Shown here: piece by piece, positions 2,850-58,481 of the stretch
Numbering within the stretch: the first letter of the stretch is position 1
Layout of the letters: each line of letters opens with the position of its first letter
Assembly (NCBI GenBank): GCA_037127815.1
Contig: JBAXXP010000002.1
Location: 41,490 to 105,489, forward strand
From: a bacterium
GTDB lineage: Bacteria; Patescibacteriota; Minisyncoccia; Phycocordibacterales; CAIZLB01
Reading direction: 5' to 3'
Length of the DNA: 64,000 bases
The notes under the pieces: model-generated
Database searches by the model: none
Told to the model about the DNA's origin: nothing
Seen by the model: only the letters and a program-made list of their open reading frames with translations
Position numbers and translations under genes: made by a program

Positions 2850-3503
2850 ATGAAAGACGACATACAAAAGCAAAACATAGGAGATATCCAATTAGATGAC
2901 GAGGAAACTACAGCACCATATACAGCTAGCGATATAAAGGATTCATTGGATGATGCAGAATCTGAAGACCTTGATGTGGAGGAGTTTGTTGATACTGATG
3001 AGGAAGGTAAGGAGGTTGGATCATCAGAAAAGCTAAAGCAATTAAGAGAAAAACTTAAGATTGCCATTAATGAGAAACAAGAATACCTAACAGGTTGGCA
3101 AAAGGAAAAAGCTGAGTTTGTAAACATAAGAAGAAGAGATGAGGAATCAAAACAAGAATTTCTAAAATTTGCTACTCAAAATCTATTGGAGGAATTTATA
3201 CCAGTTATAGATAGTTTCGATATGGCAATGTCTAATAAAGTAGCCTGGGAGGCGGTATCTTTGGAGTGGAGAAACGGAATGGAGAAAATTTATAATCAAT
3301 TCAAGGCAGTTTTGTCAAAGAATGATGTTACAGAATTTGGAGAAATAGGTGATAAGGCAGATCCTGCAAAATTCCATATGATTGGAGTAGATAGTACAAC
3401 CGATGCTAAACTCGATGAAACTGTTTCTTCGGTTTTACAAAAAGGATACATGGTCAAGGACAAAGTTTTAAGACCTGCGATGGTTAGGGTTTTTCAAAAA
3501 TAA
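2850..3503 (+). CDS. grpE: Nucleotide exchange factor GrpE
   Basis: Acidic N-terminus, coiled-coil (KLKQLREKLKIAINEKQEYLTGWQKEKAEFVNIRRR) and GrpE C-terminal fold motifs (LLEEFIPVIDSFDMAM). It sits just upstream of dnaK. Confidence 0.85.
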   Translation: MKDDIQKQNIGDIQLDDEETTAPYTASDIKDSLDDAESEDLDVEEFVDTDEEGKEVGSSEKLKQLREKLKIAINEKQEYLTGWQKEKAEFVNIRRRDEESKQEFLKFATQNLLEEFIPVIDSFDMAMSNKVAWEAVSLEWRNGMEKIYNQFKAVLSKNDVTEFGEIGDKADPAKFHMIGVDSTTDAKLDETVSSVLQKGYMVKDKVLRPAMVRVFQK

Positions 3504-4210: not shown

Positions 4211-6139
4211 ATGGCTAAAATAATAGGAATAGACTTGGGAACAACTAACTCGGCCGTTGCCGTAATGGAGGCTGGGGCTCCAAAGATTCTAGAGAACGCA
4301 GAAGGTTCAAGAACAACACCTTCAATTGTGGCAATCTCAAAGACAAATGAGAGACTTGTTGGATTATTAGCAAAGCGTCAAGCTGTAACTAATCCAAAGA
4401 ATACCGTTTATGGTATCAAGAGATTTATCGGGCACAGTTTTGATGAGGCCGGAGTTCAAGCTGATCTAAAAACCGTAGCTTACGATCTTTCAAAGGCAGC
4501 AAACGGTGGAGTTAATATAAAGATGGCTGACAAGGATTACTCTGCAGAAGAAGTTTCTGCAATGATTCTTTCAAAAATTAAGGCTGATGTTGAGGCAAAA
4601 CTTGGTGAGAAAATTACACAGGCTGTTATTACAGTTCCTGCATACTTCAATGACTCACAAAGACAAGCGACAAAGGATGCTGGTAAAATTGCAGGACTTG
4701 AAGTAATGAGAATCATTAATGAGCCAACAGCAGCGGCTCTTGCTTATGGATTCAACAAAAAGAAGGATGAGAAATTAGCAGTCTTTGACTTTGGAGGAGG
4801 AACATTTGATATCTCAATTCTAGAAGTTGGTGATGAAGTTGTCGAGGTTAAAGCAACAGACGGAGACCATAGACTTGGAGGACGCGATATTGATTACAAA
4901 CTATTAAATTACATCGCTGATGAATTTAAGAAAGAAAACGGAATTGATCTTAGAAAAGACCCTCTTGCAATGCAAAGGCTTGATGAGTCAGCTGAGAAGG
5001 CAAAGATTGAACTTTCAACAGCGACAGAAACAGAAATAAATATTCCTTTTATTGCTAACGATGATTCAGGACCAAGACACTTGGTACTTAAAATTACTCG
5101 TGCAAAATTGGAAGAAATTGCTGATGAATTCATAGAGCGCGCAATGCAAATTACAAAGCGTGCAATTGAGGCTTCACCATTTAAGGTGGCTGATATTAAT
5201 GAAATTATCCTAGTTGGAGGACAAACAAGAATGCCAAAACTTAGAGAGACTGTTAAAGCTTTCTTTGGAAAGGAACCAAATCTTACAATTAATCCTGATG
5301 AAGTTGTCGCCCTAGGTGCTGCAATTCAAGGTGGAGTTCTTGGAGGAGATGTCACTGGAATTCTACTTCTAGACGTTATTCCACTTTCACTTGGAATTGA
5401 AACTATGGGAAATGTTACAACAAAACTTATTGAAAGAAATACAACTATCCCTACATCACGTTCACAAGTTTTCTCAACTGCGGCGGACAATCAAACATCT
5501 GTAGAGATTCATATTGTTCAAGGTGAGCGTGCTCTTGCGCAAGACAATAAGTCACTAGGTAGATTTATTCTAGATGGTGTTCCACCAGCACCACGTGGTA
5601 TGCCCCAAGTTGAGGTTACTTTTGATGTTGATGCAAACGGAATCCTAAGTGTTAAAGCAAAGGAGAAGGCAACAAACAAAGAACAATCAATTAGAATTGA
5701 AGCAAGCTCAAGTCTTTCAAAAGAGGATATTGAGAAGATGAAGCAAGATGCTGAACTTCACGCAGCTGATGATGTTAAGAAGAAAGAGGAAATTGAAATG
5801 AGAAATACTGCTGATAACATGATTTACACAGCGGAAAAGGCTATCAGAGAGAATAAGGAAAAGATTCCAGCTGAGGTTATAACGGGAGTTGAGGAAAAGG
5901 TTACTGCACTTCGTGCTATTAAGGATACTGGTGAAATTGAAGCTGTTAAAAAAGCATCTGAAGAACTTTCAACTGAAATTTCAAAGATTGGTGAAGCGCT
6001 TTCAAAGGCAGCACCCGCTCCTGAGGCTGGAGCTACTCCAGGGGCTGAATCTGCAACAGAACCCGCAACTGGACCAGAAACTGGATCAACAGAAAAAACA
6101 CCAGAGGGTGACAATGTTAGAGATGCGGAGACAAAATAA
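4211..6139 (+). CDS. dnaK: Chaperone DnaK (Hsp70)
   Basis: [22 protein letters not shown]..., DLGGGTFD, the Hsp70 signatures and an acidic, Gly/Ala/Pro-rich tail. Confidence 0.95.
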
Positions 6140-19396: not shown

Positions 19397-20785
19397 ATGA
19401 AAATAGAAACGCATTCAGTTTACGTAAAATTATCTTACGGGCTACTCAGAAGAATAGTAGCCCTTTTTATGAAATCATTCCTTTTGAAGGAAACTTCAGG
19501 GTTTGAAAATATTCCAAAAGAAGGTGGGGCAATTATAGCAATGAATCATCAAAGCTTTTTTGACTTTCTATCTGTTGCCGCTCTTGCACCAAGAAATGTT
19601 CACTTTCTGGCAGCCGAAAAATTCTTTTTAAATAAATACTGGAGGATACTAATGATAGCAACTGGACAAATTAGAGTTGACAGAAAGGCTGAAGATAAGA
19701 CAAAGGCGTTAGAGGGTGTACACAAACACCTTAAGGCAAAAACTCTGGTTGGTATTTTTCCAGAAGGTACCAGATCTCATTTAAAAGATGAGATGCTCAA
19801 GGCCTATACTGGAATTGCTAAATTTGCGCTTGAAAATAAAGTACCGATTGTACCGGTAGGTATTATTGGAACACATGAAATAATGTCCAAAGCTGACAAA
19901 AAGCCAAAGATTAAAAAAGTATTAGAAATTCATGTTGGAATCCCTATGCATTTTGAAAAGTACTACGGAATGCAAGAAGACAAAGAAATATGTACTTACG
20001 TAACAGAAAGAGTGATGATGGAAATAGAGAAATTATCTCAAAAGAAATATCCTCATTATGAATCTCCAATGCATAATGAATTTACAGATAAGAATGTTGC
20101 ATTAATTGACCTTGATGGAACTTTAACAAAGGATCAAACTCAAGGACTTTTTGTAAAATATTTAATGGAGAAGGGTTATATAAGCAAAAAAGACTCATTT
20201 CTTATTTATCTATGGTTCATTTTATACAAAGCAGGCCTTGTTAGTAATCCAAAGAAAGCTCTTGGTTTTGTATTAAAGAAATTTATTGGGGAGGAAGTAT
20301 CTGTTATAGATAAGGTTGTTGATGATTTCTACGAAATATCATTAAAAAACAATATATACGAGCAATCATTTGACTTGGTAAATAAGCTAAGAAATGAATC
20401 TTATTACACAATACTTACATCAGCAGCTGTGCAACCAATTGTTAAGAAGTTTGCAAAGGAACTTGGTTTTGATGATTATATTTCTACAGAGCTCGAGGTA
20501 AACAACGGAATATTAACAGGAGAAATAAAAGGTGAAAGTCATCATGGAATTAATAAAGTTTACGCTTTACATAAATATTTTGACAAACATAAAATAAATC
20601 CTAAGAAAATTATCGCTATAAGCGACCATCACTCTGATTTACCTTTACTAAGGTATGCAGAGTACGCTATATCAGCTAATCCTAATAAAAAATTATTTAA
20701 ATATTCTAAGAAAAATAATATTCCTGTGTTATACTTAAACAACAATGAACTTTTTCAGTATATCAAGTCTAATATTATCAATTAG
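19397..20785 (+). CDS. PlsC-type acyltransferase fused to a C-terminal HAD-superfamily (HAD-IB-like) hydrolase domain
   Basis: N-terminal half has NHQSFFD and FPEGTRS. C-terminal half has LIDLDGTLT (DxDGT HAD motif I) and later SDHHSD. Confidence 0.6.
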   Translation: MKIETHSVYVKLSYGLLRRIVALFMKSFLLKETSGFENIPKEGGAIIAMNHQSFFDFLSVAALAPRNVHFLAAEKFFLNKYWRILMIATGQIRVDRKAEDKTKALEGVHKHLKAKTLVGIFPEGTRSHLKDEMLKAYTGIAKFALENKVPIVPVGIIGTHEIMSKADKKPKIKKVLEIHVGIPMHFEKYYGMQEDKEICTYVTERVMMEIEKLSQKKYPHYESPMHNEFTDKNVALIDLDGTLTKDQTQGLFVKYLMEKGYISKKDSFLIYLWFILYKAGLVSNPKKALGFVLKKFIGEEVSVIDKVVDDFYEISLKNNIYEQSFDLVNKLRNESYYTILTSAAVQPIVKKFAKELGFDDYISTELEVNNGILTGEIKGESHHGINKVYALHKYFDKHKINPKKIIAISDHHSDLPLLRYAEYAISANPNKKLFKYSKKNNIPVLYLNNNELFQYIKSNIIN

Positions 20786-22331
20786 TAGTTTGTGTTTTGG
20801 TCTTATCATATACAGAAGTGATAAGAACAGTAAAATTGCACAATATTGGTTATATACATCTATAATTTTTTCGATTTGGTCATTTAGTTTATATGAAGTT
20901 ACAAAAACTTTATCGATGAATGTGGCATTCTTTTGGCAATTTATTCTAGATATTTCAGCTATAATTTTACCTACTCTTTATTTTGGCTTTACCTCAGAAC
21001 TCTTATTGTTGAAAAATTATCGTACAAGATATATTTTTTATACGATGTCATTCCTTACTGGTCTACTCAGTTTAACACCGTACTTTAAGGATGGAATGAT
21101 TATGCGTTATGGATTCTATTGGATAAACCCAGGTCCATTGTACTTCGTTTTCCCTGTAATGTTCTTTATTGTGGTTAGTACTGCTACTTATAATCTGATC
21201 AGTTCTTATGTTAAAAACAGAGAAAACGCAGTATTAAGAGGGCAAATTAGAAATACGTTAATAAGCTGCATATTTGGTTTTGTGGGAGGTTTTACAAACT
21301 TTTTTCCCCAACTTTTCAATGTGTACCCTTTTGGTAATTATCTTGTAATTTTCTTTGTTGTATTTATGGCCTATGGAGTTATTCGATATAAACTTGTTTC
21401 TAAAAAAGTTGTATCAGCTCAAATATTTTCTGTTGCTCTTTTAATAATATTCATATTTAACATAGTAAGATCACAGGACACTAACGATATAGCAATAAAT
21501 GTTATCATTTTTATAGCTTTCATTGTTTTCGGTATCTTCCTGCTAAAAAGTGTAAATAAGGAAATAGAGGCGAGAGAGAAAATAGAAAAGCTAGCCAAAG
21601 AACTTGAAGACGCAAATGTTAAATTAAAGGAGCTCGACCAGCAGAAATCTGAATTCATTTCCCTAACATCACATCAATTAAGAGGTCCGCTAACTGCAAT
21701 CAAAGGTTATGCTTCCATGATTCTAGAGGGTGACTTTGGTCCTATTACAGATATCGTGAGGGGTGCAAATAATAAAATACTTCAATCAACAAGTGACCTA
21801 GTAATTCTGGTTGGAGACTATTTAGATGTTTCAAGAATCGAGCAGGGAAGAATGCAATATAATTTTGAGCGCTTTGATCTTGCTGAAGAGGTTAGAACGG
21901 TTATAAATGAACTAATACCAACAATAGAAAAAGCTCATTTGTCTATGGCATTTGATATCGATAAAGATGCAAATTATACCGTTGATGCTGATAAGGGAAA
22001 AATTAAACAGGTGATTGGAAATATTATTGATAACTCAATAAAATATACACCACATGGAGGTATTCATGTTTGGTTAACCAGAAAGGCAAATAGTAAAATA
22101 TTAATTACAATTTCAGATACTGGTGTTGGTATAAAATCAGAAGTATTACCTATTCTCTTTAATAAATTCTCAAGAGCACCTGATGCTTCAAAGACAAATA
22201 TTATTGGAACTGGACTTGGTCTATATATTGCCAAAAAGATGATCGAGGTACACAAAGGTAGAATCTGGGTGGAATCTGCGGGAGATAATAAAGGGTCAAG
22301 CTTCTTTATTGAGTTGGAGGGTCTCAACTAA
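20745..22331 (+). CDS. Sensor histidine kinase with ~7-TM N-terminal domain
   Basis: Multiple TM helices, H-box LTSHQLRGPLTAIKGY, and N/G1/G2 boxes (DNSIKYT, ISDTGVGI, GTGLGLYIAKKMIEVHKGRIWVES). No response regulator adjacent. Confidence 0.8.
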   Translation: MNFFSISSLILSISSLCFGLIIYRSDKNSKIAQYWLYTSIIFSIWSFSLYEVTKTLSMNVAFFWQFILDISAIILPTLYFGFTSELLLLKNYRTRYIFYTMSFLTGLLSLTPYFKDGMIMRYGFYWINPGPLYFVFPVMFFIVVSTATYNLISSYVKNRENAVLRGQIRNTLISCIFGFVGGFTNFFPQLFNVYPFGNYLVIFFVVFMAYGVIRYKLVSKKVVSAQIFSVALLIIFIFNIVRSQDTNDIAINVIIFIAFIVFGIFLLKSVNKEIEAREKIEKLAKELEDANVKLKELDQQKSEFISLTSHQLRGPLTAIKGYASMILEGDFGPITDIVRGANNKILQSTSDLVILVGDYLDVSRIEQGRMQYNFERFDLAEEVRTVINELIPTIEKAHLSMAFDIDKDANYTVDADKGKIKQVIGNIIDNSIKYTPHGGIHVWLTRKANSKILITISDTGVGIKSEVLPILFNKFSRAPDASKTNIIGTGLGLYIAKKMIEVHKGRIWVESAGDNKGSSFFIELEGLN

Positions 22332-22403: not shown

Positions 22404-22432
22404 AAAAAAACAACACTTGCGTGTTGTTTTTT
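22404..22432. terminator. Bidirectional hairpin between the histidine kinase and tRNA-His
   Basis: AAAAAAACAACAC-ttgc-GTGTTGTTTTTTATT, with A/T runs on both sides. Confidence 0.5.
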
Positions 22433-22436
22433 ATTG

Positions 22437-22510
22437 TGGGTAAGATGGGGCTCGAACCCATGACCTCTGGTTCCACAAACCAGCGCTCTAACCAACTGAG
22501 CTACATACCC
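22437..22510 (-). tRNA. tRNA-His (anticodon GTG)
   Basis: Reverse complement folds as a cloverleaf: GGGTATG / TA / GCTC-AGTTGGTTA-GAGC / G / CTGGT-TTGTGGA-ACCAG / AGGTC / ATGGG-TTCGAGC-CCCAT / CTTACCC / A. The anticodon loop is TT-GTG-GA. Discriminator is A73 and the -1 position is T, so no encoded G-1. Confidence 0.85.
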
Positions 22511-22538
22511 AAGATTGTGAGTTACAGAACAAAGATTA

Positions 22539-23888
22539 TCACGCGACAGTACTACTGTCAATAATTGCTTTTATTACCTCTGGAATCTGTTCAAAAGCAA
22601 CCTCTTGTTGTGTTCTTGCTGATAAGTTCTTAATTTGAGCCACCTTTTTGCTCATCTCATTACTTCCAGCAATTACAACAATCTGAATTTCTTGCTTCAA
22701 AGCATAGGTAAGTTGCTCTTTAAGGAAGTCTTCTTTACCCAAATAAATTTCAGTTGGAATACCTATTTTTCTTAAAGATGTGGTGATTTCTTGGCAATAT
22801 CCTTCAGCTTGTTTGTCAAAGTTTAGAATCAAAGCCTTAACTGTTGTTTTCTCTTTTTTAAGTAATGAAAGTTTCTCAAGGGCTGCAAACAGACGATCCA
22901 CACCAATAGATGCACCAACAGCAGGAAGTTTCTGCGCACTGAATCTTGATACCAAATCATCATATCTTCCACCCGAGAATACACTACCTATACTTGGTAA
23001 ATCCAAAAGCGTTGTCTCAAATACAGGTCCTGTATAATATCCAAGACCTCTTGCGACTGAAAGATCAATTTTCCAGAATTCTGATGGGACTTGAAGTGAT
23101 GCAAGATTGTCTACAATTTCCTTAAGCTCAGCAATACCTTCAAGTGCTTCAGGTGAGTCTGACATTAGAACTGAAAGATTTGTTAAAATTTCCTCAGCAG
23201 AATTTCCATCAAGTGTAATAAATTTATTTAATTGAGATATTTGAGACTCAGTTAATCCTTTACCTGTCAATTCTTTGGAAACTCCTGCCCATTCAATTTT
23301 ATCTAATTTATCAATCGATTTTAATACATCCACATTCATCTTCGCGTCATAACCAGCAAAAGAGGGTAGTCCATTTAATACTTTTCTGTTATTGATTTTT
23401 ATAAGAAATCTTTCAATCTTTAATGCAGAAAGTGTCTCATACATTAAGGCAACAACCTCAGCGTCGGCACTCATTCTTTCAGTACCAACAATGTCTGCAT
23501 CAAATTGAACGAATTCTCGGAATCTACCAGCTTGTGGTTTTTCTCCTCTCCAAACTTTACCAGTTTGATATCTCTTAAAAGGTTTTTCAATTTTATCACT
23601 GTAAAATGCCATGACACGTGCTAGAGGAACTGTTAAATCAAATCTTAGAGCAAGGCCTTCATCATCATTGCGAAGTCCGGCTTTAAACATCATCATTTTA
23701 AAATTAGCATCACCACCTGTTAGAATTTCCTCTTTTTCAATTCCAGGAGTATCCAATGGCAAGAAACCAAAAAGCTCAAATGTACTTCTGATAGAATCGA
23801 ACATTTTTTGTCTAGGAATCATGTCTTCTGGAAGATAGTCCTTGAATCCACCGGCTAGATCTGGAGAAATTGGTTTAGATATTTTCAT
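22539..23888 (-). CDS. hisS: Histidyl-tRNA synthetase
   Basis: Class II motifs (FLPLDTPGIE, LRFDLTVPLAR, GGRYDDL, RGLGYYTGPVFE) and a C-terminal anticodon-binding domain. Confidence 0.9.
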   Translation of the reverse strand: MKISKPISPDLAGGFKDYLPEDMIPRQKMFDSIRSTFELFGFLPLDTPGIEKEEILTGGDANFKMMMFKAGLRNDDEGLALRFDLTVPLARVMAFYSDKIEKPFKRYQTGKVWRGEKPQAGRFREFVQFDADIVGTERMSADAEVVALMYETLSALKIERFLIKINNRKVLNGLPSFAGYDAKMNVDVLKSIDKLDKIEWAGVSKELTGKGLTESQISQLNKFITLDGNSAEEILTNLSVLMSDSPEALEGIAELKEIVDNLASLQVPSEFWKIDLSVARGLGYYTGPVFETTLLDLPSIGSVFSGGRYDDLVSRFSAQKLPAVGASIGVDRLFAALEKLSLLKKEKTTVKALILNFDKQAEGYCQEITTSLRKIGIPTEIYLGKEDFLKEQLTYALKQEIQIVVIAGSNEMSKKVAQIKNLSARTQQEVAFEQIPEVIKAIIDSSTVA

Positions 23889-23986
23889 TTATATTGTTTG
23901 TAGCAACTGAATTTTAAATCAGTTAGACCTCATCATATTAACACACCCACATGGATTTTCAATCTAATCTCTGATAAACTACCATC

Positions 23987-24946
23987 ATGACTGAAACATC
24001 TAAAAAAGTATTATTATCTGGTATCAAATCAACAGGTAGACCTCATATTGCTAACTATTTTGGCGCAATGAAACAATATGTTGACCTTCAGGATCAATAT
24101 GATTCTCGTATTTTTATTGCAGACCTTCACTCTCTAACTACGGTTCAAAATAAAGCAGAGCTATCTCAAAATACACTTGATCTTGCCATAGACTATCTTG
24201 CTATCGGTCTTGATCCAAAGAAGGTTGTAATTTACAAACAATCTGACCTACCACAAGTAACTGAGCTTGCTTGGATTTTTAATTGTATTACAACTGTCCC
24301 ATATTTAATGCGTGCACATGCTTTTAAGGACGCTGAGGCAAAGAACAAAGAAATTAATGTTGGACTTTTCGATTATCCGATACTTATGGCGGCTGACATT
24401 CTAATTCACAATGCAGACATTGTTCCTGTAGGAAAGGATCAGCAACAGCATGTTGAAATCACAAGAGACACAGCGCAAAAATTCAATAGAGTTTTTGAAA
24501 CAGACATTTTCAAAATCCCAGATCACCTTATTCTAAAAGAAGTAGAGACAGTTCCTGGAATCGATGGGCAAAAGATGAGTAAGAGTTACAATAATCACAT
24601 TCCGCTTTTTTCAACTGATGAGGAGATTAAAAAATTGGTAATGGCCATTGTTACAGATTCAAATGGAGGAATCCCTGTTAATGTCTACAATATTCACAAA
24701 CTATTCAGAGATGAGGAATATTTGTCCAAGTTATATAAAGAGAATGAGGGCAAGTACAAAGCATTAAAAGAAGCTTTAATTGAGGATTTAATTGCCTTTA
24801 TTTCGCCACTTAGAGCTCGTAGAGAGGAGATTGCTAAAGACCCTGAGATTGTACGCGAAATGCTTAGAAACAACGCAAAAAAGCTTAAAATAGAGATTGA
24901 TGCAATTATGGATAGAGTGAAGGAAGCAGCTGGATTGGTTCTGTAA
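23987..24946 (+). CDS. trpS: Tryptophanyl-tRNA synthetase
   Basis: Class I: TGRPHIANY (HIGH-like), GLFDYPILMAADIL and KMSKS (QKMSKSYNN). Confidence 0.9.
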   Translation: MTETSKKVLLSGIKSTGRPHIANYFGAMKQYVDLQDQYDSRIFIADLHSLTTVQNKAELSQNTLDLAIDYLAIGLDPKKVVIYKQSDLPQVTELAWIFNCITTVPYLMRAHAFKDAEAKNKEINVGLFDYPILMAADILIHNADIVPVGKDQQQHVEITRDTAQKFNRVFETDIFKIPDHLILKEVETVPGIDGQKMSKSYNNHIPLFSTDEEIKKLVMAIVTDSNGGIPVNVYNIHKLFRDEEYLSKLYKENEGKYKALKEALIEDLIAFISPLRARREEIAKDPEIVREMLRNNAKKLKIEIDAIMDRVKEAAGLVL

Positions 24947-25089
24947 TCGACAACAATCAAAGATAGAAAAATATCATCTGTGGATAACTCAGAATATCTT
25001 TTGTTTTTCTCTATATTTTCTTTATGAAAAACTCATGTCTCTTATATACAATATCTTTATTATTAAGTTAGTATATAAACATAAAGTAA

Positions 25090-25698
25090 ATGAACAATAT
25101 GGTAAAAGTATTTAAGAAATCAATATCAGGTGATCAGAATAACAGCAATAATGACGCCAATGTTTTTTCATCTGAACAAAGTTACAGTAATAGCGACAGT
25201 TTTGTTACTCACAAAGAACTTGTCTCCGTATATTATGGTATAAAAGACGACATGCAAAATTCCGACAATGAATTTAGACTTGAGTTTGTGGCTGTAAAAA
25301 ATGACATCGGTAAACTTGATGAAAAATTCACAAAAGAATTTTTGAGTGTAAAAGATGAGATAAGGGTCTCTAGAGAAGAATCTCACAGAGAACTTATAGA
25401 GGTTAGAAATGAATTAATAGCTAGATTTGATAAAAGATTTGATGGTATTACATCTGATGTTGGTACATTAAAGTGCAATATAACCGTATTACAATCTGAT
25501 ATGGAGACATTACAGAATGATGTAGTTATATTGAAGAATGATGTAGTTATATTGAAGAATGATGTAGTTATATTGAAGAATGATGTAGCGGTACTAAAAG
25601 AGGATATGGCTGCGGTAAAAGATTACCTATTTACAAAACTTGTATCAGACATAAGAATGGTTGTCATGGAGTGTTTTACAGAAAAAGGGATTAATTAA
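25090..25698 (+). CDS. Coiled-coil protein with heptad tandem repeats (NDVVILK)n
   Basis: Predicted helical/coiled-coil protein whose C-terminal part is encoded by a 21-bp tandem DNA repeat. Confidence 0.45.
   Translation: MNNMVKVFKKSISGDQNNSNNDANVFSSEQSYSNSDSFVTHKELVSVYYGIKDDMQNSDNEFRLEFVAVKNDIGKLDEKFTKEFLSVKDEIRVSREESHRELIEVRNELIARFDKRFDGITSDVGTLKCNITVLQSDMETLQNDVVILKNDVVILKNDVVILKNDVAVLKEDMAAVKDYLFTKLVSDIRMVVMECFTEKGIN
25516..25591 (+). repeat. 21-bp tandem repeat, about 3.6 copies (AATGATGTAGTTATATTGAAG)
   Basis: Three perfect units plus a partial one, in frame, encoding NDVVILK repeats. Confidence 0.9.
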
Positions 25699-25768
25699 AA
25701 CACAACATACGGCAATAACAAGCATATACGATATATTAGTATTGATGCAATGTTTTGATTTACTCAAT

Positions 25769-25796
25769 TTGATTCTTTATCATTGTTTGCTATACT
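25769..25796 (+). promoter_or_regulatory. Sigma70-like promoter (TTGATT-16-TATACT) driving the aspS leader
   Basis: Good -35/-10 pair with 16-nt spacing. The predicted TSS is ~25803, giving a ~240-nt leader. Confidence 0.45.
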
Positions 25797-25803
25797 TTGA
25801 ATA

Positions 25804-26040
25804 AGCCGTTGAATCGATTAACACCGATGAGGCGAGGAAAGAAAATTTGCTAAATTACACCTAGAAATAGGCAGGATTTGAGCAAACCAGTAGAATCCTC
25901 CGTTCCATGCTACGCAAGCATAATGAGATAAAAAACAGGGTGGCACCGCGATAAAATCGCCCCTGCAAATTTATTATTAAACGTAATGAGTTTGTAGGGG
26001 TTATTTTGTTGGAAAATTTCAAAAAATAACTCTTGCAATA
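25804..26040 (+). promoter_or_regulatory. T-box riboswitch leader of aspS (antiterminator/terminator at 25937-26010)
   Basis: Conserved T-box core AGGG-UGGCACC-GCG-auaaaau-CGC-CCCU (25937-25964) has the canonical antiterminator shape, helix A1/A2 with a 7-nt UGGNACC bulge. It overlaps the terminator CGCCCCTGCAAA...TTTGTAGGGG plus a U-run (25958-26010). UGGC would pair with a G73-CCA acceptor end (tRNA-Asp/Asn). Upstream hairpins are candidate Stem I-III. Confidence 0.6.
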
Positions 26041-26050
26041 ATTAAAAAAC

Positions 26051-27457
26051 ATGAAAAATAGAATATATATAAAAGACCTAAAGGAGCACGCTGGAGAGGA
26101 AGTAACTATCGCAGGGTGGATAGATGTTAGAAGAGATCAAGGAAAATTAATTTTTCTAGATTTTAGAGATAAAACTGGAAAGGTACAAGGAGTAATCTTA
26201 CCAGGTGCAGACGCTGCAAAAGCTGTTGGAGAAACTTTGAGAACAGAATGGGTAGTTGAAGTTTTTGGAAAAGTTAATAATCGTCCAGAAAAAAATGTTC
26301 AGGCTGATAAGCAGAATGGTGATATTGAATTGGAAATTTTAGGAATCACAGTTTTGAATGAAGCAGAAACTCCCGCTTTTGAATTAACAAAAGACACAAT
26401 TGATGTAAGTGAGGAAATAAGATTAAAGTATAGATATTTAGACCTTAGAACTGATCGTCTTCAGAAAAATATCAGAAATAGACATAAGATGGCAAAGTTA
26501 ATCAGAGATATTTTTGATGAACAAGGTTATATAGAAGTTGAGACTCCACTTCTTACAAAGTCTACTCCAGAGGGTGCAAGAGACTTCCTTGTCCCTTCAA
26601 GACTAGAAAAGGGTGCTTTTTATGCTCTTCCACAAAGTCCCCAACAATACAAGCAGTTATTAATGGCAGGAGGGGTTGAAAACTATTTCCAAATTGCAAA
26701 ATGTATGCGCGATGAGGACAGTCGTGGGGATCGCCAGCCTGAATTTACTCAAATGGACGTAGAGGCAAGCTTCGTTACTGAAGAAGATATAATGTCATTA
26801 AATGAAAAAATGTTAATTGATATTGTTACAAAACTTTATCCTGAAAAAAGAATTCAAGAAATTCCTTTCCCAAGAATTCCATATGCTGTTGCGATGGAGA
26901 AATATGGAGTAGATAGACCTGATATTAGAACAGACAAAGAAGATGCAAATCTTTTAGCATTCTGTTGGATTGTTGATTTCCCATTCTTTGAGCGCGATAC
27001 TAAAGGTGGATGGACTTTTACCCACAACCCATTTTCAGCTCCAAAGAAGGAATTTGCAGAGCAATTGATGAATGCAAAAAGAAGTGACACTGGACTTGAG
27101 ACAATTCTTGCTGCTCAATACGATATTGTACTGAACGGTTCAGAAATAGGCGGGGGTAGTATCAGAAATCACAAGGCAGAAGCACTATTTAAGGTGTTTG
27201 AAATTCTTGGCTATGAAAAGGAAAAGGTGGAAAGTGACTTTGAGCATATGATTAAAGCTCTTAAATCAGGAACACCCCCACACGGTGGTATTGCCTGGGG
27301 ACTAGATAGACTTTTGATGCTTCTTGAAAACGAACCAAACATCAGAGAAGTTATGGCTTTCCCAAAGACAGGAGAAGGACGAGACCCAATGATGCAATCA
27401 CCATCTGGAGTTTCTGCTGAGCAACTTAGAGAATTGAATTTGATTATCAAGCAGTAA
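26051..27457 (+). CDS. aspS: Aspartyl-tRNA synthetase, short bacterial-type lacking the GAD insertion (possibly non-discriminating)
   Basis: OB-fold N-terminus, QSPQQYKQLLMAGGVENYFQIAKCMRDEDSRGDRQPEFTQMDVE, GGGSIRNH and GTPPHGGIAWGLDRLLMLL. At 468 aa versus ~590 for GAD-containing enzymes. Confidence 0.9.
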   Translation: MKNRIYIKDLKEHAGEEVTIAGWIDVRRDQGKLIFLDFRDKTGKVQGVILPGADAAKAVGETLRTEWVVEVFGKVNNRPEKNVQADKQNGDIELEILGITVLNEAETPAFELTKDTIDVSEEIRLKYRYLDLRTDRLQKNIRNRHKMAKLIRDIFDEQGYIEVETPLLTKSTPEGARDFLVPSRLEKGAFYALPQSPQQYKQLLMAGGVENYFQIAKCMRDEDSRGDRQPEFTQMDVEASFVTEEDIMSLNEKMLIDIVTKLYPEKRIQEIPFPRIPYAVAMEKYGVDRPDIRTDKEDANLLAFCWIVDFPFFERDTKGGWTFTHNPFSAPKKEFAEQLMNAKRSDTGLETILAAQYDIVLNGSEIGGGSIRNHKAEALFKVFEILGYEKEKVESDFEHMIKALKSGTPPHGGIAWGLDRLLMLLENEPNIREVMAFPKTGEGRDPMMQSPSGVSAEQLRELNLIIKQ

Positions 27458-35138: not shown

Positions 35139-36569
35139 ATGAATAATACAGACAACAACAAAATAAAGTCAGAGTTAGAAAAAATTAATGAAGGTGAGAT
35201 AGTGACAAGATTTGCACCATCGCCAACTGGACTATTGCATGCTGGTAATTATAGAACAGCTCTTTTTGCATATTTTGTTGCAAAGAAAAATAAAGGTAAG
35301 TTTCTACTTCGAATAGAGGACACAGACAGAGAAAGAAGTAAAAAAGAATATGAGGAAAATATCTTTGAAACATTGGAATGGTTAGGGCTTGATTATGATG
35401 GACTAGAGAGACAATCCGACAGAGTATCAAATCATAAAATGTACTTAGAGAAATTAATCAAGGAAGACAAAGCTTATATCTCAAAAGAAACTCCAGTAAA
35501 AGAAGGGGATAGGGAGGAAGTTATTAGATTTAGAAATCCTAATAAAGTTGTTACTTTTACTGATTCTGTACGTGGAGAAATCTCAGTAGATACAACAGAC
35601 CTTGGTGATTTTGTTATAGCAAAAAGTATCGATGAACCGGTATTTCATTTAGCAGTTGTTGTTGATGATTTTGAGATGGGTGTAAATTATATAATAAGAG
35701 GGGAGGATCATATTCCAAATACACCAAGACATATATTAATAATGGAAGCGATTGGGGCACCAATTCCTAGGTTCGCCCACTTACCAATTGTACTTGCTCC
35801 TGATAGAACAAAACTTTCAAAGAGAAAAGGGGCTCTTCCTTTAACTGACTACAGAGATAGGGGTTTTCTACCTGATACAATGATTAATTACATGGCAATG
35901 ATTGGCTGGAACCCAGGAGGAGAGAAAGAAATATTTACAAAGGAGGAAATAATTGATCTTTTTGATATTACAAAGGTACAAAAAGGTGGAGCTATTTTTG
36001 ATGAAGTAAAACTACGATGGGTTAATAAGGAACACATGTTAAAATTATCACACGATGATTATACAAAAAAGTTAGTAGAATTTATTCCTGAACACCTATC
36101 AACACTTACAACTTTTGCATCAAGAATAGATTCTGTAAGTGACATAATGCGAGACAGATTAGAATACTTCAAACAAATTCAGGAAGTTTATGAGGATGGA
36201 GATTTGGAGTATTTCTTTATCGATCCACTTTATGATGCAGACATACTTATTTGTGCAGAAAAAATGAGAAAAGGCAAAGAAGTTACACACGACAGTCTCG
36301 CCAAAATACTAAAAACCTGTAAACAAGAACTGGAGAAATTATCAAAGGAACAGGGCGAAGGTGGCTGGAATAAAGAGACAGTAAAAGAAGTATTATGGCC
36401 TATAGCAGAACTAGAAGGACGAGGAATAGTACTATGGGCAGTACGTGTGGCCTTGTCAGGTAAAGAGAAATCACCAGATCCGTTCATAATGGCAGAAACA
36501 ATTGGAAAAGACGAGACATTAGCTAGGATTCAAAAAGCAGAAGGTTTCCTGAAAGAGAAGATGGTGTAA
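35139..36569 (+). CDS. gltX: Glutamyl-tRNA synthetase
   Basis: RFAPSPTGLLHAGNYRTALF (HIGH region), LRIEDTDRERS and KLSKRKG (KMSKS). Start chosen at MNNTD; the ORF-track start at 35103 is also possible. Confidence 0.85.
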   Translation: MNNTDNNKIKSELEKINEGEIVTRFAPSPTGLLHAGNYRTALFAYFVAKKNKGKFLLRIEDTDRERSKKEYEENIFETLEWLGLDYDGLERQSDRVSNHKMYLEKLIKEDKAYISKETPVKEGDREEVIRFRNPNKVVTFTDSVRGEISVDTTDLGDFVIAKSIDEPVFHLAVVVDDFEMGVNYIIRGEDHIPNTPRHILIMEAIGAPIPRFAHLPIVLAPDRTKLSKRKGALPLTDYRDRGFLPDTMINYMAMIGWNPGGEKEIFTKEEIIDLFDITKVQKGGAIFDEVKLRWVNKEHMLKLSHDDYTKKLVEFIPEHLSTLTTFASRIDSVSDIMRDRLEYFKQIQEVYEDGDLEYFFIDPLYDADILICAEKMRKGKEVTHDSLAKILKTCKQELEKLSKEQGEGGWNKETVKEVLWPIAELEGRGIVLWAVRVALSGKEKSPDPFIMAETIGKDETLARIQKAEGFLKEKMV

Positions 36570-36626
36570 TAGTATTAAAAAAGGGTGCACAGAAATGATG
36601 TGGAAATAAACAAAAAACTAGACTAA

Positions 36627-37949
36627 ATGAACATTAAAAATTATAAAACAAACAAATATTCAGTACTTACTATATTTTTTACCATAACTCTTTTGTTTAT
36701 ATTTTCTATATTATTTACTCCAACAAAAACCACATTTGCAGCAAGCACTGTTGCTGAGCTACAGGCAATGATAGATGAGAAAAGTAGAAACATCGATGCA
36801 TTAAATAAGGAAATAGAATTGTATTCAAATCTATCAGATAAGACATCCGCAGAAGGAGTCACTTTACAGAAGAAAATAAAGTCATTAACTCAAAATGGAA
36901 AAATGCTTGATGCAGATATCAAGAAAACCAAGACTCAAATAGATGTTGCCAATCTGGCAATCAAAAAGCTGGGTATAAATATACAAGCTTCAACTGATAA
37001 AGTATCGCATTATCAATCGATAATATCTGAGGAGCTTAAAAATATTCAATACAGCGAAGACTCATCATTAATTGTTAATCTATTAAGTCAGAGAAATATA
37101 TCTGATGTACTGATGGAAATCGACAATCTTAGAACACTAAACGAAGAACTTAAGAAACAGATAGACACGCTTGGAACTGAAAAGAAGGTCTTGGTTCAAA
37201 ACAAAACACAGAAGGAGGAGACAAAAAAAGAACTTACAACTCTTCAAATTGAATTGACGGGTAAAAAGAAAGTTGTGGAAGCAAACACTCAGGAGCAATC
37301 TCAAATATTAAAGGAAACAAAGAGTCAAGAAAAAATATATCAAGATTTAGTAAAACAGAGACAAGCTCAAAAACTAGCCTTGGAGAAGGAACTTTTTGAT
37401 TATGAATCAACACTTAAGTACACACTTAATCCCGCATTAATACCAAAGCCATCACTTGCAGCAATGCTGAGTTGGCCACTTGATAAAGTAACTATTACTC
37501 AGCTTTTTGGAAAGACATCGGCGTCAGCGAGACTTTATGTTTCCGGGACACATAATGGTGTAGACTTTGGTGCAAAACTTGGAACTCCAGCCAAAGCAAC
37601 AGCGTCAGGTGTTATTATTGGCGCTGGAGATACTGACTTAACATGTAAAGGTGCATCCTTTGGACGATGGGTGCTTATAAAACATGATAATGGCCTAGCA
37701 ACAATTTATGGTCACTTGTCAGTCATTGGGGTTAAAGAAGGACAAAAAGTGGCAGTAGGAGACATTATAGGTTACACTGGAAATACAGGATATAGTACAG
37801 GTCCACACCTTCATATTAGTGTCTACGATGGCAACGCTGTGCATGTTGAAAATAGACCAAGTGTGTCATGTGGAGGTAAAATTTACAGAATGCCAATCGC
37901 GCCGATTGCAGCGTACCTTGATCCAATGGTTTATTTTCCAAAGAAATAA
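36627..37949 (+). CDS. M23-family (LytM domain) peptidoglycan endopeptidase with N-terminal coiled-coil (EnvC-like)
   Basis: Signal/TM, a long coiled-coil, then a C-terminal LytM domain (HNGVDFGA ... GYTGNTGYSTGPHLHISV). Confidence 0.75.
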   Translation: MNIKNYKTNKYSVLTIFFTITLLFIFSILFTPTKTTFAASTVAELQAMIDEKSRNIDALNKEIELYSNLSDKTSAEGVTLQKKIKSLTQNGKMLDADIKKTKTQIDVANLAIKKLGINIQASTDKVSHYQSIISEELKNIQYSEDSSLIVNLLSQRNISDVLMEIDNLRTLNEELKKQIDTLGTEKKVLVQNKTQKEETKKELTTLQIELTGKKKVVEANTQEQSQILKETKSQEKIYQDLVKQRQAQKLALEKELFDYESTLKYTLNPALIPKPSLAAMLSWPLDKVTITQLFGKTSASARLYVSGTHNGVDFGAKLGTPAKATASGVIIGAGDTDLTCKGASFGRWVLIKHDNGLATIYGHLSVIGVKEGQKVAVGDIIGYTGNTGYSTGPHLHISVYDGNAVHVENRPSVSCGGKIYRMPIAPIAAYLDPMVYFPKK

Positions 37950-37986
37950 AAATTTACAAATAAATTAAAATAAATAGAAATATAAT

Positions 37987-39924
37987 ATGTGTGGAATAGC
38001 AGGAATAATTGGAAATAAAGAAATATCATCTACATCAATTGACAAGATGGTTGATATTATTAGTCATAGAGGCCCAGATGACAGAGGTATTTTGAATGAT
38101 GATAAATTCTCTTTTGGAATGAGAAGATTGTCTATCATAGACCTAGAAGGAGGACATCAACCAATGTCTAATGAGGATGGAAGTATTACTGTTGTATTCA
38201 ACGGTGAAATTTATAATTACAAAGAACTAAGACCCAGCCTGCTTGCGCTTGGCCACACATTTAAAACAGAAAGTGATACCGAGGGTTTGGTTCACCTGTA
38301 TGAGGAGTATGGTAAGGATATGGTTAAATATTTAAGAGGTATGTTTGCTTTTGCAATTTACGATTCTAATAAGAATCAGATTTTTATTGCACGTGATCAT
38401 TTTGGAATTAAGCCATTATACTTTTCAACTGATAAGGATTCTACAATCGATAATAATCCAAACGGAGGTAATCTACTTTCATTTGGATCAGAAATAAAAA
38501 GCATACTACTGGATCCTCGAATCAAAAAAGAAATAAACCATGAGGGGGTTTATCAATATTTATCTTTTCAATATAATCCTTTATCTGAAACTCTATTTAA
38601 AAGAATATTCAAGTTAACTCCTGGACATCATCTAACAATAGATTTGAGTAAGGAAAATGAATCGCCTTTTGTAATAGAAAAATATTGGAATTATGAATTT
38701 GATGGGGCAAAAAACACAAAGAAATCTAATATATCTGAAGCCTTAATTGAGAAACAATTAGCTGACAAGACAAGAGAAATTGTAACAGATTCTGTTGCAC
38801 ATCATATGATAAGTGATGTGCCTGTTGGTACGTTTCTATCAGGAGGAATTGATAGCGGTATAATTGCAACACTAGTTCAGGAAGAGAGAAATAAAGCTAA
38901 TATGGGGCCTGTATCCACCTTTACCATCGGCTTTAAAGAAGTTAGCGAACAGGCAGCAGCTAAGGAAGTAGCAGACAGAATTGGATCAGAGCATAATGAA
39001 ATCCTAATTACATTTGAGGAATATTTAAAAGAGCTACCTAAAATTGTTTGGTATTTTGACGAACCAGTAGCTGACCCGTCAGCGGTTTCATTATTTTTCC
39101 TTGCGAGAGAAGCTAGAAAGAAAGTGAAGGTAGTGCTCTCAGGAGAAGGAGCTGATGAGTTTTTTGGTGGATATAATATTTACAGAGAACCCCTAGATAT
39201 AAAAATTATTGAATCATTGCCAGAATGGATAAAATATTTTTTCTTAAGACCTTTTCTTCTTTTGCCATTTAATTTCTTAGGTAAAAATTTTATAAGAAGG
39301 GGAGTAACAAAATTGGAGGATAGGTATATTGGTAATGCAAATATTTTCAATAAAAAAGACCGTGATTTAATTTGGAAAAAAGAAAAATATTTACCAAAGT
39401 TTTTACCAAAAGATATTCTTAGTAAATTATATGTAGAGATGAGAGGGGAGAATGACTCTAGAAAAATGCAATACGTAGATATTAATACTTGGCTGCAAGG
39501 GGACATATTAGCAAAGGCAGACAAGATGACTATGGCAAATTCATTAGAGCTTCGAGTTCCCTTCCTCGATAAAAATGTAGCTGAGTTCTCAGAAACTATT
39601 CCTGATAAGTTTAAATATAAGGATAAGAAAACTAAATATATTTTAAGAAAGGCCTTTGAAGATATACTTCCTAGGACGACAGCAGAACGCAGAAAATTAG
39701 GTTTTCCAACCCCTTTTGGAGCTTGGCTTAAAAATAGTCCAGATGAAGTTATGAACATAATTCTTAATAATGAATACATCAAGGAGTATATGAATATGGA
39801 CTTTATAAAGGATTTAGTAGAAAAACATGTAAACGGTAAGATGATTGGAAAAGTAGATATATCAAGAAAGATTTATGCATTATTAATGCTCGCCTTGTGG
39901 TATAATGAATTTATAAAAGAATAA
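37987..39924 (+). CDS. asnB: Asparagine synthetase B (glutamine-hydrolysing)
   Basis: Ntn-amidotransferase start MCGIAGIIG and the PP-loop SGGIDSG in the synthetase domain. Confidence 0.9.
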   Translation: MCGIAGIIGNKEISSTSIDKMVDIISHRGPDDRGILNDDKFSFGMRRLSIIDLEGGHQPMSNEDGSITVVFNGEIYNYKELRPSLLALGHTFKTESDTEGLVHLYEEYGKDMVKYLRGMFAFAIYDSNKNQIFIARDHFGIKPLYFSTDKDSTIDNNPNGGNLLSFGSEIKSILLDPRIKKEINHEGVYQYLSFQYNPLSETLFKRIFKLTPGHHLTIDLSKENESPFVIEKYWNYEFDGAKNTKKSNISEALIEKQLADKTREIVTDSVAHHMISDVPVGTFLSGGIDSGIIATLVQEERNKANMGPVSTFTIGFKEVSEQAAAKEVADRIGSEHNEILITFEEYLKELPKIVWYFDEPVADPSAVSLFFLAREARKKVKVVLSGEGADEFFGGYNIYREPLDIKIIESLPEWIKYFFLRPFLLLPFNFLGKNFIRRGVTKLEDRYIGNANIFNKKDRDLIWKKEKYLPKFLPKDILSKLYVEMRGENDSRKMQYVDINTWLQGDILAKADKMTMANSLELRVPFLDKNVAEFSETIPDKFKYKDKKTKYILRKAFEDILPRTTAERRKLGFPTPFGAWLKNSPDEVMNIILNNEYIKEYMNMDFIKDLVEKHVNGKMIGKVDISRKIYALLMLALWYNEFIKE

Positions 39925-39931
39925 TTTATTT

Positions 39932-40171
39932 ATGAAAAAAATATCAAATCAAAAAGGTTTTATTGAGATAATTGTTGTACTAATTATTGCACTCGTTCTA
40001 CTAAATGTACTTGGTATTGATCTTAAGGCAGTGCTTGCAAAAGACTCCGTAAAACAATTTATAACATATGCAAAGGACTTGATTGTATTAGTTTGGAATG
40101 ACTTGAAGATGCTTGTTGATGCTATTAAAAATTCAAATGTAGCTCCATCTAGCTATCCAACGGTAAACTAG
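39932..40171 (+). CDS. Small protein with prepilin-like N-terminus (pseudopilin/ComGC-like?)
   Basis: MKKISNQKGFIEIIVVLIIALVL resembles the class III signal (KGF-x-x-IE plus hydrophobic helix), but the Glu sits at +3 rather than the canonical +5. 79 aa. Confidence 0.3.
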   Translation: MKKISNQKGFIEIIVVLIIALVLLNVLGIDLKAVLAKDSVKQFITYAKDLIVLVWNDLKMLVDAIKNSNVAPSSYPTVN

Positions 40172-40215
40172 AAAGATCTACTGATTACGTTTCAATAAAA
40201 TAAACTAATTTAAAG

Positions 40216-40254
40216 CCCCCGCCAAGATTTGAAAATCTACTTGCGGGGGTTTTT
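40216..40254. terminator. Bidirectional GC-clamp terminator
   Basis: CCCCCGCAAGATT-tgaaa-ATCTACTTGCGGGGG followed by TTTTT. Serves the converging genes 39932(+) and 40258..40590(-). Confidence 0.6.
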
Positions 40255-40257
40255 AGT

Positions 40258-40590
40258 TCATATCCTAAGGTAGCCAAGACGGACTCTTAGAATACAACAG
40301 ACTCTTTCAAAATCACCTTGCTTCTTTTCGCTCCCTGTATGGTCGTGGTATAGATCCCTGATGCATTTTCTAAAATCCAGTAATCCTCTAGTCTCAGATT
40401 CATTCTTCGGTGATTCATTGGTTATGTACTCAATAAATCTAAGAGCGTCATCAACTCGAGCTTCACAGAAGCCCCCAAGGCGTTGTGGTAGTCCAGCTTG
40501 GTAAAGTGTTGAGATAATTGTCAATTGTATTGGATTCAAAGAATCCCAGAATTTGTCAAATGTGGAAAATATCATATACGTGTTCTCCAA
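40258..40590 (-). CDS. Hypothetical protein
   Basis: 110-aa ORF, moderately GC-richer than the core, no recognisable motif. Confidence 0.3.
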   Translation of the reverse strand: MENTYMIFSTFDKFWDSLNPIQLTIISTLYQAGLPQRLGGFCEARVDDALRFIEYITNESPKNESETRGLLDFRKCIRDLYHDHTGSEKKQGDFERVCCILRVRLGYLRI

Positions 40591-41209
40591 TCTATTTTTA
40601 TGTGTTTATACTTCTCTTAATGAATATCAGTATTTAAATTTTTATAATTCATCATTTTACTTAAAATTATTTAACAAAATAAAAATAAATATTTGTGCTT
40701 TTTTATAAGTAAACCACAAAAGCTTTTTTTGTCAACAATAGGGGAGAAGGGGGCATTTTTAGGCCAAATGACATATCTGGCAAAATTAGCAAAAATGCCA
40801 AAATTATGAGGGCACAGGTTGACGCTACAGGCCAGCGAATAAAATAAGACGAGCAAACATACCTCTCAAATTATTATGTAAAAGGCAATTAAAACCCATA
40901 CAATAAGCCGGCGGTTAAAATAGCCTTATTCAGAAGGGGTTTATATGTATGTCGCAAAAGATATATTGTGCGACACCTATATACTTTGTATTATGGCTCC
41001 CCTCAGCAACCAATAAGGCCTTAACGTCAGCAGATACAATTGCGATTCAATTTGCGCAGTCCTCTCCTTCTCTACAACAAAATTCCGCAGGCTACCTAAT
41101 CTTTAGCGCGCGGAATTTTATTTATTTTTTATTTTTTTTGAAAATTTTGAATTTCCAGATTATCCTAGATTTGTGCTAAAATTAACATAATCAATTTTAT
41201 TTTAAATTT

Positions 41210-41881
41210 ATGGAAAATTTCACAGATATACCAAAAGAAGAAAAAATGCCCATTCAGGCAGAATCACAATTCCCCATCCAGAATCTAGGCCTGGAGTCTG
41301 AGGCACATACGGAGACACCTAAAGAAAAAAATACATCAAGGAGAAGTTTCCTGGCCGGCATATTTGGAGCTGGAGCTGCACTTGCTACCGGAGGCTTTTC
41401 TTCAGAATCACTAGCTGGGGTACCTGAGGTAAAGAGCCAAGAAGCGGAAAATAAGCTACTTCAAAAAATCGGTCTAGAGAGAAGCCAGATTAAGCCAGAA
41501 TATCTAAAGAAGTACTTTGAGGGTGCTTACAAAGCAATTGTCATAGTGGACGTAAGCCCTGATAAGCAATCATTATCCGCATACGACAAGGATGGTAATA
41601 TTCTAATTAAAGACGCTGAAATTTCAAGTGGAAGAGCTCATATGGAGACTCCAACTGGAAGTCATGAATCTGGAAAGAGAGAACTTATCCATGTTAATCG
41701 CGAAGGTATCGATATGCCATACTCAGTTGCTATTGATGCCGAACGTGGATTGTATGTACATAAAGGATCTCTGCCTGGCTTCCCTGCTTCTCATGGTTGT
41801 ATAAGGGTTGGTGATGATGATGCTAAAAAAATATATAATCTGGCTGAACATAGTAAGGATTTGGTGATTGTAACCAGATAA
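41210..41881 (+). CDS. L,D-transpeptidase (YkuD domain) with twin-arginine signal peptide
   Basis: TSRRSFLAGIFGAGAALA (Tat motif S/T-R-R-x-F-L) and a C-terminal YkuD fold with catalytic SHGCIRV. Confidence 0.7.
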   Translation: MENFTDIPKEEKMPIQAESQFPIQNLGLESEAHTETPKEKNTSRRSFLAGIFGAGAALATGGFSSESLAGVPEVKSQEAENKLLQKIGLERSQIKPEYLKKYFEGAYKAIVIVDVSPDKQSLSAYDKDGNILIKDAEISSGRAHMETPTGSHESGKRELIHVNREGIDMPYSVAIDAERGLYVHKGSLPGFPASHGCIRVGDDDAKKIYNLAEHSKDLVIVTR

Positions 41882-42087
41882 ACTTTAGACCTAGGTACTT
41901 TTTTTGAGTTGTCTGCTGAACACTGTACCTAACCCCAAGACATGGCTTTCCGAATAACTTATATTAAAGACAATACTATAATGAACTCGAATGCACTATA
42001 AATAATAGTAACAAAAACTCAATTAAAAAAATATTGACAAATTAAATATTAGTTATAACATTACATCAGGACTAGCACAATGCTCGT

Positions 42088-56128: not shown

Positions 56129-56235
56129 GTTTTATTGGGGTTGGGGTTCTATTCTCTTTCTTGAAATGAGCGGCTTTTCTATCAAAGCTCTGGCCAAACA
56201 CTACCATAGATTTTTAACCTTGTAAATATAAGAAA

Positions 56236-56262
56236 AGGGTCAGGCTATGAAAGCCTAACCCT
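56236..56262. repeat. Degenerate REP-like palindrome between the two SixA-like genes
   Basis: AGGGTCAGGCTATGAAAGCCTAACCCT. Confidence 0.5.
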
Positions 56263-56291
56263 TTTTAAAACTGCATGGTGTGCAAGGCAAT

Positions 56292-56831: not shown

Positions 56832-56888
56832 GAGCGCCTACTTCCGATTGTAATATTACATCTATTTTATTCTTTGTACAGTCAATTT

Positions 56889-56935: not shown

Positions 56936-56940
56936 AAATA

Positions 56941-58458: not shown

Positions 58459-58481
58459 GGGTTTGATTATATCATAAAAAT

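Follow-up and report, generated by a model that had tools for sequence, protein, structure and literature searches.

A hisS-linked tRNA-His gene without an encoded G-1 in a Parcubacteria-type bacterium and its relatives

An extra 5' guanosine (G-1) marks histidine transfer RNAs (tRNA-His) in almost all life. Only a small clade of Alphaproteobacteria and some protists have been named as exceptions (2023 identity review; Rao & Jackman 2015; Heinemann et al. 2012). In Caulobacter crescentus, tRNA-His has no G-1 and carries A73, G1:U72 and U20a, and its histidyl-tRNA synthetase (HisRS) depends on the anticodon and on U72 (a loss of about 100-fold with U72C), is indifferent to A73C and carries inserts (Yuan et al. 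2011; Ardell & Andersson 2006 and Wang et al. 2007, as cited in later papers). The HisRS of Trypanosoma brucei and Acanthamoeba castellanii charge tRNA-His that lacks G-1 and has G1:C72 and A73 (Rao & Jackman 2015). Here we describe a tRNA-His(GUG) gene, directly downstream of the synthetase gene hisS, in a 64-kb stretch of bacterial DNA (contig JBAXXP010000002.1, positions 41,490 to 105,489; hereafter the window). The gene encodes no G-1 and has A73 in place of C73, its position behind hisS is conserved in related lineages of the candidate phyla radiation (CPR), and the canonical G-1:C73 pair is absent from all of the relatives listed within its clade and present in a sister clade.

Anatomy and register of the tRNA-His gene

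The sole tRNA found by ARAGORN in the window is tRNA-His(gtg) on the minus strand (22436-22510). The Rfam tRNA model scores 72.1 bits over 22437-22510, with no other Rfam family above its gathering score in the window. The locus comprises the following features:

22539-23888, minus strand: hisS, histidyl-tRNA synthetase, 449 aa (open reading frame (ORF), TIGR00442 and Pfam)
22511-22538, minus strand: hisS-tRNA spacer of 28 nt, doubling as 5' leader of the tRNA, with U as its last base (-1) (sequence)
22437-22510, minus strand: tRNA-His(GUG) with no encoded G-1 (ARAGORN, Rfam, sequence and clade comparison)
22404-22432, minus strand: A/U-rich hairpin of 12 pairs with a GCAA loop, followed by a U-run (fold and sequence)
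23935-23962, minus strand: promoter-like TTGAAA-16 nt-TAATAT with TG (weak consensus match)

Read along the minus strand, with slashes at the two ends of the tRNA, the gene is ...caatctt/GGGUAUG-UA-GCUC-AGUUGGUUA-GAGC-G-CUGGU-UUGUGGA-ACCAG-AGGUC-AUGGG-UUCGAGC-CCCAU-CUUACCC-A/caauaaaaaac. Position -1 is T (U in the RNA), the discriminator is A73 and the first pair is G1:C72, giving an acceptor helix of 7 bp and not 8 bp, and the D-loop has 9 nt. The 3' trailer begins CAA, so that CCA is not encoded. Both canonical marks, an encoded G-1 and a C73 to pair with it, are thus missing from the gene. The original prediction had read T at -1 and A73 here and had described the gene as the only tRNA in the window, on the same strand as hisS; this reading is correct, and the distance from the hisS stop codon to tRNA position +1 is exactly the 28 nt it gave.

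The acceptor stem contains a U6.U67 mismatch (window 22505 for position 6 and 22445 for position 67), which is not a sequencing error since the identical tRNA occurs in an independent assembly (L162), and in more distant relatives positions 6:67 are Watson-Crick paired. An alignment of 14 homologous tRNA-His genes shows compensatory double changes at 8 of 21 pairs, including the acceptor pairs 4:69, 5:68 and 6:67, and compensatory substitutions are also seen in the anticodon and T stems. This covariation fixes the 7/5 register, in which the first G pairs with C72, and therefore rules out an 8/4 split between acceptor and T stem as well as any cloverleaf redrawn to give G-1:C73, the revised boundary which the original prediction had itself named as its point of weakness. 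Reading an encoded CCCA as C73 followed by CCA is also ruled out, as relatives encode ACCA or CCCA after C72.

The tRNA-His of L162 is 100% identical to that of the window while its HisRS is 91% identical and its leader and trailer have diverged. Because the tRNA has stayed the same despite its changed flanks it is under selection and not a decaying copy, and judged by the compensatory changes the tRNA-His genes of the clade are functional.

Related lineages, host and synthetase

Loci of HisRS relatives were gathered from GTDB genomes, JGI metagenomes and an exact-protein look-up, and every adjacent tRNA-His was typed. In at least 16 distinct lineages of the window HisRS clade, with HisRS 41-100% identical to that of the window, hisS is closely followed on its own strand by a tRNA-His gene. 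G-1:C73 occurs in none of the 16 lineages listed. Position -1 is T in ten, C in four, G in one and A in one, and position 73 is A in ten and C in six. The two positions combine as T:A (7), T:C (3), C:A (2), C:C (2), G:A (1) and A:C (1), with no covariation between them. G1G2G3/C70C71C72 is invariant, G1:C72 being present in all 16, CCA is encoded in about half, and the length of the D-loop is not fixed. The non-histidine tRNAs in the CPR loci have T at -1 in six cases, A in three and C in two and, because these are the same bases, U-1 of the window gene is best regarded as ordinary leader usage and not as a partner of A73. The combination of U-1 with A73, which the original prediction had singled out as a feature, consequently falls away, since the other tRNAs, too, most often have T at -1. 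Its broader suggestion of an atypical identity set is supported, and the linkage to hisS to which it had drawn attention is indeed meaningful, being conserved across the 16 lineages with gaps of 5-118 nt, and with no promoter-like site in the spacer of the window and a hairpin with a U-run beyond its tRNA.

All but one of these gaps fall between 5 and 48 nt. The exception, L175, has 118 nt, with a G+C-rich hairpin and then a T-run between hisS and tRNA-His (2555-2775), and here the linkage has probably been kept though co-transcription is interrupted. Three Parcubacteria-type contigs with hisS and tRNA-His (L002, L003 and L031) are filed under metagenome-assembled genomes (MAGs) of Lutibacter sp., Gammaproteobacteria and Saccharibacteria, labels that probably reflect binning contaminants or mislabelling.

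A Sungbacteria-type subclade, whose named members are Candidatus Sungbacteria/Sungiibacteriota of the Parcubacteria group, lies within the same CPR HisRS clade as the window in a neighbour-joining tree. All five of the listed Sungbacteria-type loci with an adjacent tRNA-His (L086, L092, L094, L130 and L155) encode both G-1 and C73, and in these loci the tRNA gene is placed divergently upstream of hisS. Since the canonical state is kept in this sister clade, the absence of G-1 in the window lineage is a derived, lineage-wide trait, and the loss probably arose inside the CPR, independently of the alphaproteobacterial case. In L086, L092 and L155 a tRNA-Arg(UCU) is found directly downstream of hisS as well. 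Across the HisRS family as a whole the linkage of tRNA-His to hisS takes three different arrangements.

The nearest named relatives of the window HisRS belong to the Patescibacteria group, the Parcubacteria group and Candidatus Paceibacterota, and those of its DnaK (4211-6139) to Pacebacteria, Paceibacterota and Parcubacteria. Contig SESG01036197.1 of GCA_005795785.1 encodes a HisRS identical to that of the window. In NCBI taxonomy Paceibacterota is handled as phylum Minisyncoccota, which, going by the names of the relatives, we take to be CPR/Patescibacteria, the NCBI lineage line being silent on this. On the evidence of these protein relatives the host is a Parcubacteria/Paceibacterota (CPR) bacterium and not an alphaproteobacterium. 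The low G+C of the window (0.33-0.42) had hinted at an alphaproteobacterial origin, for example SAR11, and this is ruled out by the relatives of HisRS and DnaK.

With 375.7 bits the synthetase clears the 286.75 cut-off of the hisS equivalog model TIGR00442, stays below the cut-off of the HisZ model (191 against 272) and contains the Pfam domains tRNA-synt_His and HGTP_anticodon, with PF03129 covering residues 352-441. By these model matches it is a class IIa HisRS and not a HisZ paralogue. Among enzymes of known structure it matches Nostoc 3NET best (247 bits), followed by human cytoplasmic HisRS (226 bits), with Thermus thermophilus and Escherichia coli HisRS at 81-95 bits and the trypanosomatid enzyme (3HRI/3HRK) at 125 bits, more distant than human. 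Going by these scores the enzyme is of the eukaryote/archaeon-like type. The motif-2 loop, WRGEKPQAGRFREF, is almost constant in the clade, recurring in 61 of the 88 scorable HisRS sequences, and has Lys at the position of T. thermophilus Arg115.

In the T. thermophilus HisRS complex the G-1 pocket is formed by Gly72'-Gly73', and C. crescentus HisRS has two aspartates at this dipeptide (Tian et al.). The loop before the RFDLT box, which is prone to indels and hard to align, reads NDDE in the window HisRS and contains GG in the human and T. thermophilus enzymes, so that at the same spacing from RFDLT the pocket dipeptide of the window is Asp-Asp. It varies across 120 clade members, with GD in 25, QE in 15, ED in 11 and GG in one. 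The loop of the G-1-dependent human HisRS (DQGGE) is acidic as well, on which ground the net charge of the loop was set aside as a discriminator. In addition, the two CPR HisRS clades have different fixed residues at 16 alignment columns, of which several (357, 365, 386 and 390) belong to the anticodon-binding domain; these columns are candidates for the co-adaptation presumed in the original prediction and nothing more.

Transcription, processing and charging

The promoter scan found no sigma-70-like site on the minus strand in the 28-nt spacer between hisS and tRNA-His. The nearest minus-strand site outside hisS is the promoter-like sequence 46 nt upstream of the hisS start, and with 8 consensus sites in the scan against 6.3 expected in shuffles this is weak evidence for a promoter. 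The hairpin 3' of tRNA-His is present in both the minimum-free-energy fold and the centroid, was not called by a simple terminator scan, and faces a convergent histidine-kinase gene (20745-22331). As modelled it is probably the intrinsic terminator of a hisS-tRNA-His transcript, acting in both directions. Given a spacer without a promoter-like site and a hairpin beyond the tRNA, co-transcription of hisS and tRNA-His is plausible. As for a T-box or other leader upstream of hisS, where the intergenic region measures 98 nt, Rfam finds only the tRNA in the window.

The reading that we favour, and consider rather probable, is that hisS and tRNA-His form an operon whose tRNA is cut by RNase P at +1 and charged by a HisRS that relies on the anticodon and is independent of G-1. 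Transcription would begin at a promoter upstream of hisS and end at the hairpin past the tRNA. RNase P would then cut at its ordinary site, between U-1 and G+1, the leader resembling that of any substrate cut at +1 because its -1 bases match those of non-histidine CPR tRNAs. After trimming of the 3' trailer and enzymatic addition of CCA, the mature tRNA-His would start at G1 with no G-1, and the adjacent HisRS would charge it in that form with no strict dependence on the discriminator. In favour of this last step, close relatives alternate between A and C at position 73 under a constant motif-2 loop, which argues against the discriminator as a strong determinant. Recognition would rest mainly on the GUG anticodon, perhaps aided by the invariant G1-G3:C70-C72 end of the helix. 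One Parcubacteria locus of the same HisRS clade (L173) carries tRNA-Ile(UAU) and tRNA-Val(UAC) genes (577-650 and 2940-3014) with the acceptor end GGGCACG...CGUGCCC plus A73, identical to that of the G-1-less tRNA-His of L083. An acceptor end that is shared with tRNA-Ile and tRNA-Val cannot specify histidine, which lends indirect support to the anticodon. The leaders of all four tRNAs of the L173 locus are also almost alike, tcact[tc], and suggest that these genes have their processing or promoter context in common.

Co-transcription would link synthetase and tRNA in dosage as well as in inheritance. In yeast, overexpression of tRNA-His together with HisRS is reported to bypass the need for G-1 (Preston & Phizicky, as cited in a later paper), and T. 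brucei HisRS may need raised tRNA levels (Rao & Jackman 2015). By analogy the tight hisS-tRNA linkage might matter for dosage, which is speculation.

Several observations weigh against this G-1-independent, anticodon-reliant HisRS and its placement. The HisRS tree was built by neighbour joining and has no support values, and among solved structures the human enzyme, which is G-1-dependent, is near the top of the relatives of the window HisRS. In the Sungbacteria clade, which does encode G-1, a clear GG is likewise missing and Ser stands in place of T. thermophilus Arg115, the pocket dipeptide of clostridial relatives is GD, and one member of the window clade (L031) has G at -1, opposite A73. 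As markers of G-1 dependence, the GG dipeptide, the Arg115 residue and the motif-2 loop do not discriminate, in view of the Sungbacteria and clostridial deviations.

The strongest competing explanation, which the original prediction had raised and which we nonetheless judge unlikely, has RNase P cut at +1 and a Thg1-like enzyme encoded elsewhere in the genome add G-1, so that HisRS still needs the extra nucleotide. The enzyme is eukaryote/archaeon-like, with 226 bits to human against 81-95 to E. coli and T. thermophilus HisRS, and the window covers just 64 kb of the genome. A gene that has A73 and encodes no G-1 follows the eukaryotic pattern, and bacterial Thg1-like proteins exist and can guanylate tRNA-His in vitro (Heinemann et al. 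2012). The eukaryal type of Thg1 needs A73, while archaeal and bacterial types prefer templating by C73 (Heinemann et al. 2012). With C73 in 6 and A73 in 10 of the 16 listed lineages, however, a single enzyme would have to tolerate repeated flips of the discriminator, and C73-C74-C75 would tend to make templated addition run on. A scan of 19 window ORFs with lengths of 171-284 aa, between which a Thg1-like protein would fall, found no Thg1 or Thg1C Pfam domain. The searchable literature yielded no link between Thg1 and the CPR. CPR genomes are, moreover, strongly reduced.

Far less probable is a retained U-1 that pairs with A73 to form an 8-bp helix, shifting RNase P to -2/-1 and leaving the extra nucleotide as the identity mark. 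T at -1 with A73 is found in the window and in six other members of the clade, and in the literature a -1:73 pair redirects RNase P in canonical tRNA-His. The remaining lineages speak against such a pair, having T with C73 in three cases, C with A73 in two, G with A73 in one and A with C73 in one, and T is what the other tRNAs of CPR loci most often carry at -1. U-1 with A73 is also common in ordinary bacterial pre-tRNAs, which are cut at +1. We give equally little credence to the idea of the linked gene as a spare copy, non-essential or in decay, with a canonical G-1:C73 gene elsewhere doing the work: the 64-kb view and tandem tRNA-His copies in L014, which belongs to another clade, leave some room for it, but the tRNA is 100% identical where HisRS differs by 9% and the flanks have diverged, its stems are preserved through compensatory changes, synteny is maintained down to 41% HisRS identity and the Rfam score is 72 bits.

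Elsewhere in the window, three aminoacyl-tRNA synthetase genes lie within 5 kb (22539-27457), namely hisS on the minus strand, trpS (23987-24946) and aspS (26051-27457). The AspRS is only 468 aa long and a bacterial model of 590 aa matches it in two stretches, which suggests from the sequence that the bacterial insertion domain is missing. Up to about 39.9 kb nearly all genes run on the plus strand and beyond that point most run on the minus strand, with the peak of cumulative GC skew at 36-40 kb, and window positions of about 36000-42000 may be a replication terminus or the boundary of a large inversion. The second half of the window contains a KilA-N domain protein and an IS200-like Y1 transposase (regions 45719-46555 and 54963-55559), and G+C climbs to 0.40-0.42 at 56000-64000; mobile or foreign DNA may be present in this half. 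A 1190-aa ORF occupies 49963-53535 on the minus strand.

Comparison with described histidine identity systems

G-1-independent histidine identity is already known as a kind, and the CPR case is not a new category. A search of the full-text literature accessible to searching found no description of G-1-less tRNA-His in CPR, Patescibacteria or Parcubacteria, the CPR tRNA-identity paper that it did find dealing with Tyr and Trp. Within that literature the CPR case appears to be undescribed so far.

In the literature the alpha-type tRNA-His is confined to one alphaproteobacterial clade. Among the loci we gathered, its G-1-less signature (G1:U72, C3 and A73, with G73 in two) is seen in MAGs of Thermoanaerobaculia, Acidobacteriota, Holophagales and Planctomycetota. 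The loci listed with this signature come from GTDB (L009, L011, L013, L014, L016, L017, L020, L021 and L033) and from metagenomes (L089-L091, L095, L096, L098-L101, L103, L104, L108, L110, L112, L114, L119 and L121). They have no G-1, most have a 9-nt D-loop, and nearly all have the tRNA-His on the strand of hisS and upstream of it, at a distance of a few to about 120 nt, L089 having it on the opposite strand. Their HisRS have the motif 2 WRADKPDKGRFREF and cluster with Paracoccus HisRS in the neighbour-joining tree.

More tentatively, and with somewhat more doubt than confidence, Parcubacteria-type CPR may represent an independent third bacterial histidine identity, anticodon-based, in which G-1, N73 and the 1:72 pair are uninformative and hisS and its tRNA are inherited as a cassette. 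Were this so, a CPR branch without G-1 whose acceptor end has G1:C72 and leaves the discriminator free would mean repeated breaks of the rule in Bacteria, and together with the Acidobacteriota and Planctomycetota loci it would make loss of G-1 recurrent there. Linkage of synthetase and tRNA would keep orthogonal pairs together and perhaps transfer them together. Related HisRS with and without a G-1 substrate, the Sungbacteria type and the window type, could be used to map the switch, and the compact linked HisRS/tRNA pairs, potentially orthogonal, could serve genetic-code engineering. Annotation is affected as well, since the tRNA-His of these genomes will be mis-scored wherever an isotype model or a quality check expects G-1:C73.

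Compared with canonical bacterial tRNA-His, the window tRNA shares the anticodon, the overall cloverleaf and G1:C72, and differs in that position -1 is not G, position 73 is not C and the acceptor helix has 7 bp in place of 8. The original prediction had likened it to the alphaproteobacterial exception, and by analogy this holds for the missing G-1 and for A73. Like the C. crescentus pair, the window pair is bacterial with no encoded G-1, its tRNA has a 9-nt D-loop with U20a, DD replaces the GG pocket dipeptide in its HisRS, and anticodon reliance is presumed in both. The likeness fails elsewhere. The window and all 16 listed lineages of its clade have G1:C72, whereas C. crescentus has G1:U72, the CPR clade varies in N73 and in the length of the D-loop, and the inserts of Paracoccus HisRS are absent from the window enzyme. 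Paracoccus HisRS groups with the HisRS of G1:U72 systems and the window with the CPR clade in the neighbour-joining tree, the host phyla differ, and the sister of the window clade keeps G-1:C73.

The protist systems resemble the window at the level of the gene in having G1:C72, A73 and no G-1, and they too combine a HisRS of the eukaryote/archaeon-like type with a recognition proposed to be dominated by the anticodon. The protist pairs are, in contrast, eukaryotic and cytosolic, have no gene linkage and come with biochemistry. Taken feature by feature, the sequence of the window tRNA is closer to these protist systems than to the alphaproteobacterial pair.

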